Below are positions 39,432 through 42,845 of a DNA stretch of 47,124 nt, one piece after another (positions within the stretch are counted from its first letter, which is position 1; each line of letters opens with the position of its first letter). The DNA comes from a virus (lineage: Duplodnaviria; Heunggongvirae; Uroviricota; Caudoviricetes): IMG/VR virus record IMGVR_UViG_2939521961_000002; one strand, written 5' to 3'. A model generated the notes under the pieces. That model had not been told where the DNA came from, made no database searches, and saw nothing but the letters and a program-made list of their open reading frames with translations. A program made the translations under genes and the position numbers.

Positions 39432-42400
39432 ATGGGTAAAGGCAGCAGTAAGGGGCATACCCCGCGCGAAGCGAAAGATAACCTGAAATCCACGCAGCTG
39501 CTGAGTGTGATTGATGCCATCAGCGAAGGGCCGATTGAAGGTCCGGTGGATGGATTAAAAAGCGTGCTGCTGAACAGTACGCCGGTGCTGGACAGTGAGG
39601 GGAATACCAACATCTCCGGCGTCACGGTGGTGTTCCGGGCAGGTGAGCAGGAGCAGACACCGCCGGAAGGTTTTGAATCCTCCGGCTCCGAGACGGTGCT
39701 GGGTACGGAAGTGAAATATGACACGCCGATCACCCGCACCATCACGTCGGCAAACATCGACCGTCTGCGCTTTACCTTCGGTGTGCAGGCACTGGTGGAA
39801 ACCACCTCAAAGGGGGACCGGAATCCGTCGGAAGTCCGCCTGCTGGTTCAGATACAGCGTAACGGTGGCTGGGTGACGGAAAAAGACATCACCATTAAGG
39901 GCAAAACCACCTCGCAGTATCTGGCCTCGGTGGTGGTGGATAACCTGCCGCCGCGCCCGTTTAATATCCGGATGCGCAGGATGATGCCGGACAGCACCAC
40001 AGACCAGCTGCAGAACAAAACGCTCTGGTCGTCATACACCGAAATCATCGATGTGAAACAGTGCTACCCGAACACGGCACTGGTCGGCGTACAGGTGGAC
40101 TTGGAGCAGTTCGGCAGCCAGCAGGTGAGTCGTAATTATCATCTTCGCGGGCGCATTCTGCAGGTGCCGTCGAACTATAACCCGCAGACGCGACAATACA
40201 GCGGTATCTGGGACGGAACGTTTAAACCGGCATACAGCAACAACATGGCCTGGTGTCTGTGGGATATGCTGACCCATCCACGCTACGGCATGGGGAAACG
40301 TCTTGGTGCGGCGGATGTGGACAAATGGGCGCTGTATGTCATCGGCCAGTACTGCGACCAGTCAGTACCGGACGGCTTTGGCGGCACGGAGCCGCGCATC
40401 ACCTGTAATGCATACCTGACCACACAGCGCAAGGCGTGGGATGTGCTCAGTGATTTCTGCTCGGCGATGCGCTGTATGCCGGTATGGAACGGGCAGACGC
40501 TGACGTTCGTGCAGGACCGACCATCAGATAAGGTGTGGACCTATAACCGCAGTAATGTGGTGATGCCGGATGATGGCGCGCCGTTCCGCTACAGCTTCAG
40601 CGCCCTGAAGGACCGCCATAATGCCGTTGAGGTGAACTGGATTGACCCGAACAACGGCTGGGAGACGGCGACAGAGCTTGTTGAAGATACGCAGGCCATT
40701 GCCCGTTACGGTCGTAATGTCACGAAGATGGATGCCTTTGGCTGTACCAGCCGGGGGCAGGCACACCGCGCCGGGCTGTGGCTGATTAAAACGGAACTGC
40801 TGGAGACGCAGACCGTGGATTTCAGCGTGGGTGCTGAAGGGCTTCGCCATGTACCGGGCGATGTTATTGAAATCTTCGATGATGACTATGCCGGTATCAG
40901 CACCGGTGGTCGCGTGCTGGCGGTGAACAGCCAGACCCGGACGCTGACGCTCGACCGTGAAATCACGCTGCCATCCTCCGGTACCACGCTGATAAGCCTG
41001 GTTGACGGAAGTGGTAATCCGGTCAGCGTGGAGGTTCAGTCCGTCACCGACGGACTTAAGGTGAAAGTGAACCGGGTTCCTGACGGCGTTGCAGAATACA
41101 GTGTGTGGGGGCTGAAGCTGCCGACGTTGCGTCAGCGCCTGTTCCGCTGTGTGAGTATCCGTGATAACGATGACGGCACGTATGCCATCACTGCCGTGCA
41201 GCATGTACCGGAAAAAGAAGCCATCGTGGATAACGGGGCGCACTTTGACGGCGACCAGAGCGGCACGGTGAATGGTGTCACGCCGCCAGCGGTGCAGCAC
41301 CTGACCGCCGAAGTCACCGCAGACAGCGGGGAATATCAGGTGCTGGCGCGCTGGGACACGCCGAAGGTGGTGAAGGGCGTGAGCTTCCTGCTCCGTCTGA
41401 CCGTAACAGCGGATGACGGCAGTGAGCGGCTGGTCAGCACGGCCCGGACGACGGAAACCACATACCGCTTCACGCAACTGGCGCTGGGGAACTACAGGCT
41501 GACAGTCCGGGCGGTAAATGCGTGGGGGCAGCAGGGCGATCCGGCGTCGGTATCGTTCCGGATTGCCGCACCGGCAGCACCGTCGAGGATTGAGCTGACG
41601 CCGGGCTATTTTCAGATAACCGCCACGCCGCATCTTGCCGTTTATGACCCGACGGTACAGTTTGAGTTCTGGTTCTCGGAAACGCGGATTACCGATATCA
41701 GGCAGGTTGAAACCACAGCCCGCTATCTTGGTACGGCGCTGTACTGGATAGCCGCCAGTATCAATATCAAACCGGGCCATGATTATTACTTTTATATCCG
41801 CAGTGTGAACACCGTTGGCAAATCGGCATTCGTGGAGGGCGTCGGTCGGGCGAGCGATGATGCGGAAGGTTACCTGGATTTTTTCAAAGGCAAGATAACC
41901 GAATCCCATCTCGGTAAAGAGCTGCTGGAAAAAGTTGATTTGACGGAGGATAACGCCAGCAGACTGGATGAGTTTTCGAAAGAGTGGAAGGACGCTAACG
42001 ATAAATGGAATGCCATGTGGGGCGTCAAAATTGAGCAGACCAAAGACGGCAAACATTATGTCGCGGGTATTGGCCTCAGCATGGAGGACACGGAGGAAGG
42101 CAAGCTGAGCCAGTTTCTGGTTGCCGCTAACCGTATCGCGTTTATTGACCCGGCAAACGGGAATGAAACGCCGATGTTTGTGGCGCAGGGCAACCAGATA
42201 TTCATGAACGACGTGTTCCTGAAGCGCCTGACAGCCCCCACCATTACCAGCGGTGGCAGTCCTCCGGTATTTTCCCTGACATCAGACGGAAAGCTGACCG
42301 CTAAAAATGCGGATATCAGTGGCAGAGTGAATGCGAACGCCGGGACGCTCAACAATGTCACGGTAAATGAAAACTGTACGATTAAGGGCATGCTGGAGGC

Positions 42401-42845
42401 GACTCAGGTCAGAGGTGACTTCGTTAAAGCTGTATCCAAATCATTCCCGAAACAGGCTGGTACGTGGGGTAATACGGAAACACCAAACGGGACGGTTACA
42501 GTCACCATCAGCGATGATCATAACTTTGACCGTCAAATCATTATTCCGCCCATTATCTTTAACGGAATAGCGTATAGCGATCCGGGAAGTGGTAATAACC
42601 CGGGAGGTACAAGATACACGGGTTATGGTTTTGAAGTTCGCAAAAACGGTGTATTAATCGCATCCAGAGAAACTAAAGGGGCCATTCCCGGTAGTTACAG
42701 TGCAGTTATTGATATGCCTAGTGGTGGTGGTAGCGTCACTCTGGAGTTTAAGATTTTCCAGAAAGGCAATCAGGGGGCAGGGAATATCACCGACTGTACG
42801 GTGATTGTGACCAAAAAAGCGGCTTCCGGTATCAGTATTCGTTGA
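39432..42845 (+). CDS. J: Central tail fibre / host specificity protein J (C-terminal receptor-binding region diverged from lambda)
   Basis: 1137 aa; about the first 960 residues match lambda gpJ; the last ~170 residues differ from the lambda LamB-binding domain as recalled. Confidence 0.9.

Follow-up and report, generated by a model that had tools for sequence, protein, structure and literature searches.

The window considered here, a stretch of 47,124 nucleotides from a tailed virus (Duplodnaviria; Heunggongvirae; Uroviricota; Caudoviricetes; IMG/VR record IMGVR_UViG_2939521961_000002), harbors a tail operon in which the genes M, L, K, and I are followed by J and then by lom, stf, and tfa. 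This order is given by the open reading frames (ORFs) of the window and by the RefSeq annotation of the identical prophage of Escherichia coli O26:H11 11368. The following paragraphs concentrate on gene J and on the domain at the C-terminus of its product (Table 1). With its full gpJ domain architecture and its position in the operon, the product is recognized as a lambda-like tip attachment protein. It displays the six Pfam gpJ domains in the order Phage-tail_3, FNIII-A_GpJ, Ig_J, Ig_J_second, Phage_Tail_Tip, and Ig_GpJ_C, all of them scoring far above the curated cut-offs. The conserved body of the protein encompasses the hub domains, the FNIII/Ig domains, an alpha-helical shaft, and the central straight fiber (domain names follow the cryo-electron microscopy (cryo-EM) study of lambda, PMC11101478), and is followed by a specificity region, the receptor-binding domain (RBD).

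Table 1. Location of gene J, its parts, and neighboring features in the 47,124-nt window (aa, amino acids).
Feature	Position	Strand	Remarks
Gene J (tip attachment protein / central tail fiber)	39432..42845	+	1137 aa, intact ORF
Conserved J body (residues 1-963)	39432..42320	+	98.9% identical to 434 over residues 1-960; identity to lambda in text
Specificity region / RBD (residues 964-1137), 434 type	42321..42842	+	assigned from identities, Pfam, and structure homologues
RBD loop 1008-1020	42453..42491	+	equals the 434 'third loop' and the lambda 1012 indel hotspot; 2-residue insertion vs lambda
RBD hairpin 1046-1062	42567..42617	+	aligns with phi330 E953-S962 and the lambda 1048/49 hotspot; 6-residue insertion vs lambda
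RBD hairpin 1108-1118	42753..42785	+	aligns with phi330 A1015-P1020 and the lambda 1107 hotspot; 4-residue deletion vs lambda
DNA block without detectable lambda homology	42402..43387	+	J residues ~991-1137, intergenic terminator, 5' two-thirds of lom
Hairpin GGCGTCA-GGAA-TGACGCC followed by TTTTTT	42868..42891	+	likely intrinsic terminator after J
lom (Ail/Lom outer-membrane beta-barrel), 434 type	42916..43515	+	199 aa; Pfam Ail_Lom, E 9e-119
stf (side tail fiber; neighboring host-range determinant)	43574..46540	+	988 aa, intact
tfa (tail fiber assembly)	46540..47124	+	194 aa; 94% identical to lambda Tfa; annotated in O26:H11 11368
TGA nonsense codon in tail-tip gene K (38059-38802)	38707..38709	+	codon 217 of 247; CGA in lambda and 434

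Compared with lambda gpJ (NC_001416, 15505..18903), the J protein of the window is 88% identical overall (BLASTP). This identity is distributed unevenly along the protein. In a five-way alignment of the J proteins of the window, lambda, phage 434, phi330, and phage 21, residues 1-960 are 97.3% identical to lambda and residues 964-1137 only 43.0%; identity per 50-column bin amounts to 45-50 of 50 up to column 950 and then declines to 36, 21, 14, and 13. Such a step from 97% to 43% inside one ORF is far beyond chance. The DNA shows the same transition. In blastn, the window matches lambda without interruption over 37926-42401 (96.4%); homology is then lost over 42402-43387 and regained at 43388 within the 3' third of lom. 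The DNA breakpoint is sharp and lies around J residue 990 (nt 42401), with scattered substitutions present already from residue 965.

A preliminary description, made from the sequence alone, had located at 42300-42845 (residues 957-1137) a C-terminal receptor-binding region unlike that of lambda, preceded by about 960 lambda-like residues. These coordinates and the J sequence quoted with them are correct, and both the likeness of the body and the divergence of the last ~170 residues are borne out by the alignment to lambda and other lambdoid J proteins, in which the C-terminus shows no near-identity to lambda. The module exchange that had been proposed agrees with the sharp DNA breakpoint and with a replacement that matches the corresponding segment of phage 434 at 93% identity. 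The non-lambda block extends past the J stop codon, through a terminator and into lom.

The replacing domain falls into a discrete class. A tblastn search with the last 174 aa against 50,697 phage records yielded 74 records with at least 90% identity and 173 with less than 60%, with none between; phage 434 (OL657226) belongs to the upper group with 93.1%. The complete J proteins of the window and of 434 (CPT_434_21) are both 1137 aa long and 98% identical. Twelve of the 23 substitutions between them are found in the last 174 aa, where no indels occur, and the loops have equal lengths at the four indel hotspots of this protein family (lambda 1012, 1048/49, 1077/78, and 1107). The neighborhood is likewise of 434 type: positions 37321-44001, covering L, K, I, J, lom, and the start of stf, are collinear with 434 DNA at 96%, and this stretch takes in the block missing from lambda, with 42402-43387 being 86-100% identical to 434 per 50-nt segment. 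Other domain classes are clearly different, as the RBD shares 49% identity with phi330 and 46% with phage 21, while phi330 and 21 are 82% identical to each other. Because of the 98% identity to 434 J, the collinear DNA, and the clear difference from the other classes, J of the window is, by sequence comparison, a member of the 434 (h434) class. Outside this region the likeness ends: the stf genes diverge after window position 44001, and the remaining phage genome is not that of 434. Synonymous divergence (dS) from 434 amounts to 0.28 in the receptor-binding region and to 0.10 in codons 1-960, an approximately threefold difference; even within the 434 class, therefore, the histories of the two J parts differ.

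Membership in the gpJ fold family is based on Pfam and on homology to solved structures, not on structure prediction. Ig_GpJ_C (PF12421) matches residues 1001-1136 with 89.7 bits (cut-off 26.2), and the domain is homologous over its full length to the solved gpJ RBDs 9wca (E 6.5e-39) and 8xcj (E 2.5e-30). An AlphaFold2 model of residues 905-1137, calculated without an alignment, was unusable (mean pLDDT 48.7, pTM 0.46).

Several other assignments were tried and rejected. The LamB-binding domain type of lambda does not apply, given 43% identity and indels of +2, +6, +1, and -4 residues at the four loop hotspots. A domain of the A8/phi330/phage 21 type is rejected by the identities to phi330 and 21 given above, the 9wca match representing a homologue with a different allele. 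The allele is also distinct from the published OmpC chimeras A8 and 1A2, with which DNA is shared only in the conserved stem. The solved A8 chain carries phi330 residues and the phi330 C-terminal tail (...SISDLLVVVMKKSTAGISI), which places it in the phi330/21 type, unlike the window allele, and 1A2 shows no DNA similarity to the window beyond the stem. The A8 and 1A2 sequences were taken from the supplement of the Nature 2024 publication, machine-read with errors, and were compared by DNA similarity only.

The architecture of J corresponds to a known mode of J evolution. In a survey of 1207 natural J homologues, a conserved body was distinguished from a recombining specificity region (960-1132) that has its own phylogeny and shows lineage-defining indels at the four loop hotspots listed above (Maddamsetti et al., 2018; PMC6646904). 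Since the four indels between the window and lambda fall exactly at these hotspots, the window follows the published general pattern. That study included cdtI, mEp460, and Ayreon among nine lambdoid reference proteomes for a whole-genome tree comparison and gave the natural J lineages no receptor assignments; all three carry a 434-type J in the present comparison. With lambda gpJ (P03749; PDB 8iyk, 8xcj, 8xck) the window protein shares residues 1-960, the domain architecture, and the C-terminal fold family, but differs in the hotspot indels and, very probably, in the receptor, which is LamB in lambda. With phage 434 and the lambda h434 allele it has the length, the lom type, and the collinear DNA from gene L to the stf start in common. 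The A8 and 1A2 chimeras, phi330, and phage 21 are built alike: around residue 964, a lambda-like body passes into a C-terminal domain that has the same fold but is not that of lambda.

Phage 434 uses the porin OmpC as receptor, and the 434 gene in place of lambda J retargets lambda to OmpC and ends its LamB dependence (PMC11101478, PMC3509688). By analogy, J of the prophage is considered a 434-type tip attachment protein that is, with high probability, specific for OmpC. This supports the view of the preliminary description that a receptor other than LamB is used; the choice of OmpC follows from the 93% identity to the 434 domain and the use of OmpC by 434. OmpC is recognized by further relatives of the domain. 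In the work of Eligo, C-termini of natural prophage gpJ proteins were fused to lambda gpJ at residue 964, and the chimeric particles A8 and 1A2 are OmpC-dependent and LamB-independent (PMC11338833). The fusion point of these chimeras is the junction found in the window J. Knockout and complementation showed that phage phi330 needs OmpC (PMC12502783). OmpC is thus used by at least three diverged alleles of the gpJ RBD fold. Structures are available for the A8 gpJ fragment (9wca/9wcb) and for the lambda gpJ fragment with and without LamB (8xcj/8xck).

How such a domain engages its porin is known from lambda. According to cryo-EM of lambda on LamB, the Ig-like domain puts four bottom loops into the porin and the domain base widens; the change is then relayed via the central straight fiber and the helical shaft, and the tail tip opens (PMC11101478). 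The trimeric 434-type domain would, most likely and by analogy, dock its bottom loops on OmpC, likewise a trimer, in place of LamB, and the binding signal would pass along the unchanged straight fiber and shaft until the tail tip opens. Lambda-like transduction is expected here because the upstream parts of J are ~97-99% identical, and the tail-opening mechanism is presumably the same as in lambda. As the text of the lambda-LamB study gives loops L1-L4 without residue numbers, the positions of indels were compared instead. In AlphaFold3 models, two hairpins contact OmpC, joined in 434 by a third loop, and of the corresponding phi330 segments E953-S962 is predicted to point into the OmpC barrel and A1015-P1020 to contact its rim (PMC12502783). 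Mapped by alignment, these predicted contact loops correspond to residues 1008-1020, 1046-1062, and 1108-1118 of the window J. The mosaic itself arose, most likely, from homologous recombination between lambdoid phages, with the conserved sequence just upstream of the J domain (the stem) and the conserved 3' end of lom as the probable joints.

The allele bears the marks of a functional one. For the specificity region, the ratio of nonsynonymous to synonymous divergence (dN/dS) against 434, calculated over codons 961-1137 and 991-1137, amounts to 0.10-0.12, and because of this value of ~0.1 the RBD is regarded as being under purifying selection. Four phages, Evi, 2B8, PhiR26_1 (host E. coli K-12 MG1655), and PhiR29_1, match the specificity region with 100% DNA identity. 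PhiR26_1 and 2B8, both deposited as phage genomes, each differ from the window J at 6 residues, all located at or before residue 751, and their nucleotide identity up to the J stop codon begins at window positions 41684 and 41997, respectively.

The same domain type is widespread in the host species. The 434-type J 3' end (42402-42845) is present with at least 80% coverage in 2091 of 5426 complete E. coli genomes (~39%), and the longer block 42402-43387 in 1978 of the same 5426 under the same coverage threshold. For the corresponding segment of lambda, the count is 97 of the 5426 genomes, always at ≥99% identity; among the lambda-type matches listed, the top three are laboratory strains, namely two B derivatives (one being DE3) and a K-12 strain. 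The J 3' end of lambda is the unusual form in E. coli. The identity of the domain as the classical h434 allele, the reach of the difference into lom, and the rarity of the LamB-binding form in E. coli go beyond the preliminary description. The 434-type 3' end reaches 7 copies in some genomes and is present twice in O26 strains.

Within the O26 lineage, a resident prophage of E. coli O26:H11 11368 (NC_013361, 646779-657903) contains the 11-kb tail region of the window at 100% identity, as do other O26 strains. In O26:H11 11368, J is annotated as gpJ, and the tail region of the prophage adjoins ompT and envY.

Several observations weigh against a straightforward reading of J as an OmpC-specific protein that serves this prophage. 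Gene K, encoding a tail-tip protein, contains a premature stop, and J may not be used for infectious particles in this copy. Six of the 12 domain substitutions relative to 434 (1008, 1009, 1019, 1049, 1110, and 1115) lie in or beside the predicted OmpC-contact loops. G1115 aligns with lambda D1107, a residue at which a change helps receptor switching (PMC6646904). With half of the substitutions at the predicted contact loops, and 1115 at the position of lambda D1107, the specificity could differ in detail from that of 434. Furthermore, no published receptor test was found for PhiR26_1, PhiR29_1, 2B8, Evi, mEp460, Ayreon, 2851, or the O26 prophage.

The first of these points leads to a competing explanation, namely that J is an unused relic in a tail-defective prophage with a truncated gpK, serving mainly as recombination stock for co-resident lambdoid prophages. 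This is a substantial possibility that falls somewhat short of an even chance. The nonsense codon of K is identical in O26:H11 11368, where RefSeq lists K as a pseudogene with an internal stop, whereas K is intact in lambda, 434, PhiR26_1, and 2B8. In addition, related tail regions are numerous in O26: the 11-kb tail query matches each genome at 15-17 places, and the 434-type domain does so at 2. The prophage copy may, judged from the K sequence, be tail-defective. However, J, lom, stf, tfa, and gene I, which overlaps K, are all intact ORFs, and a gpK lacking its last 30 residues may or may not retain its function. The explanation moreover concerns the prophage copy and not the function of the allele, which occurs in identical form in viable phages with intact K. 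If the truncated gpK is nonfunctional, the prophage cannot build its own tail tip, and the intact J matters only via complementation by, or recombination with, other lambdoid prophages of O26. The base change that creates the stop in K also results in A3V in gene I.

The loop substitutions underlie a second explanation, in which the domain retains the 434 fold but has shifted to OmpF or another porin, so that neither LamB nor OmpC is bound. Besides the placement of half of the differences from 434 at predicted contact loops, the confinement of variation among ten 434-type alleles to loop sites speaks for it, as does the observation that in lambda changes at hotspots 1012 and 1107 together with at least one more J mutation suffice for OmpF use (PMC6646904). 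In lambda, though, the gain of OmpF added a receptor while LamB use was kept. Furthermore, the window domain shares 93% identity with that of 434 and does not differ from it in loop length at any of the four indel hotspots, it is subject to purifying selection, and each of its variant residues except R965 is found in other natural 434-type alleles. A shift to another porin is thus improbable. That the domain still binds LamB, its divergence from lambda being neutral drift within one functional class, is hardly credible, for although the fold family is that of lambda and LamB can be the target of other, unrelated GpJ C-termini in Drexlerviridae (bioRxiv 10.64898/2026.04.02.716166), the domain shares just 43% identity with that of lambda and differs from it by indels at each of the four loop hotspots, the fall from 97% to 43% is abrupt rather than gradual, and the near-identical 434 allele is documented as OmpC-dependent, its h434 swap removing the LamB dependence of lambda.

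With OmpC as the probable receptor, the variation within the 434 class deserves a closer description. Beyond residue 1020, the ten 434-type alleles compared vary only at 1049, 1099, 1108, 1110, and 1115, and the states at these sites reassort between alleles. Sites 1008, 1009, and 1019 differ between the window and 434 and are polymorphic among 434-type alleles; site 1049, also polymorphic in the family, is S in the window and D in 434; sites 1108, 1110, and 1115 differ from 434 as well, with 1115 being G, R, or W across the family. The loop-site states of the window recur in other natural 434-type alleles, the contact loops being those of the AlphaFold3 prediction only, while R965 is unique to the window among the ten alleles. 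A small-scale mosaic is also seen inside the window allele, which resembles cdtI/Stx2c from 42303 to 42662 (0-2 differences per 90 nt) and is the same as 434 and 2851 over 42663-42752 (0 differences vs 7 for cdtI). This succession of a cdtI/Stx2c-like stretch and one identical to 434/2851 suggests short-patch recombination among alleles of the 434 family.

The polymorphic 434-type sites coincide with the receptor-switch hotspots of lambda, and the engineered A8 and 1A2 chimeras accept different OmpC variants. It may tentatively be proposed, as an idea that is rather unlikely to hold as it stands, that sites 1004/1008/1009/1019, 1049, 1099, and 1108/1110/1115 constitute a combinatorial code tuning 434-type alleles to the OmpC variants of E. 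coli lineages. If so, the window allele (S1049, G1099, Q1110, G1115, and R965) would have an OmpC-variant range unlike that of 434.

A further property concerns the conserved part of J. HepS, a prophage-encoded anticodon nuclease, is triggered by a 32-residue segment of J (PMC13043305). In the window, this segment (residues 902-933 including F924; 42135-42230) is the same as in lambda, and the window J would be expected to activate HepS.

Downstream of J, the putative terminator hairpin was read directly in the sequence; a hairpin scan also found it, listing it on the minus strand, and the annotations of 434 and mEp460 show a terminator there as well. The subsequent lom shares 97% identity with lom of 434 and 46% with that of lambda. 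A functional coupling of J domain type with lom type, comparable to the receptor-blocking genes located downstream of J in other siphoviruses, was considered and rejected, since phi330 has a different J RBD type and yet the same lom type (95%). From these comparisons, the J domain and lom appear as separate modules that form one block only when compared with lambda, whose lom is the outlier.

The side tail fiber gene stf encodes the Pfam domains phage_tail_N, Phage_fiber_2 (three times), and Collar. The N-terminus of its product is 80% identical to lambda orf-401 and the C-terminal 229 aa are 72% identical to lambda orf-314; the middle part is long, repetitive, and rich in Ala/Ser, and contains the three Phage_fiber_2 repeats. 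In contrast to the frameshifted gene of lambda PaPa, stf of the window is long and intact. Stf of Ur-lambda reportedly binds OmpC. By analogy, the side fibers and J of the window might target the same porin.

The stop codon of tfa (47124) coincides with the end of the window. In O26:H11 11368, tfa is followed by genes for a SAM-dependent methyltransferase, a tfa fragment, and an alpha/beta hydrolase, and then by ompT and envY; this gene succession suggests that the prophage resides at a DLP12-like locus. Positions 1-25000 of the window, comprising integrase, replication, and terminase genes, match ECOR-derived PhiR phages in pieces at 96-98%.

Lambda genetics has relied on the 434 host-range allele for decades, and 434 J was sequenced in 2022. 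The feature described here is this well-known allele in a common prophage of enterohemorrhagic E. coli (EHEC) O26 and as such is already known; likewise, the modular evolution of J has been published, and domain swapping at residue 964 is existing engineering practice for OmpC targeting. Its practical value lies in annotation, as this prophage and ~39% of complete E. coli genomes carry a J with OmpC, not LamB, as the likely receptor, and the label "lambda-like" for a J protein should not imply LamB tropism. Of modest interest, the loop polymorphisms of the 434 class may tune specificity for OmpC variants, and natural alleles that vary only at the loop hotspots could provide a ready panel for studies of OmpC-variant specificity.

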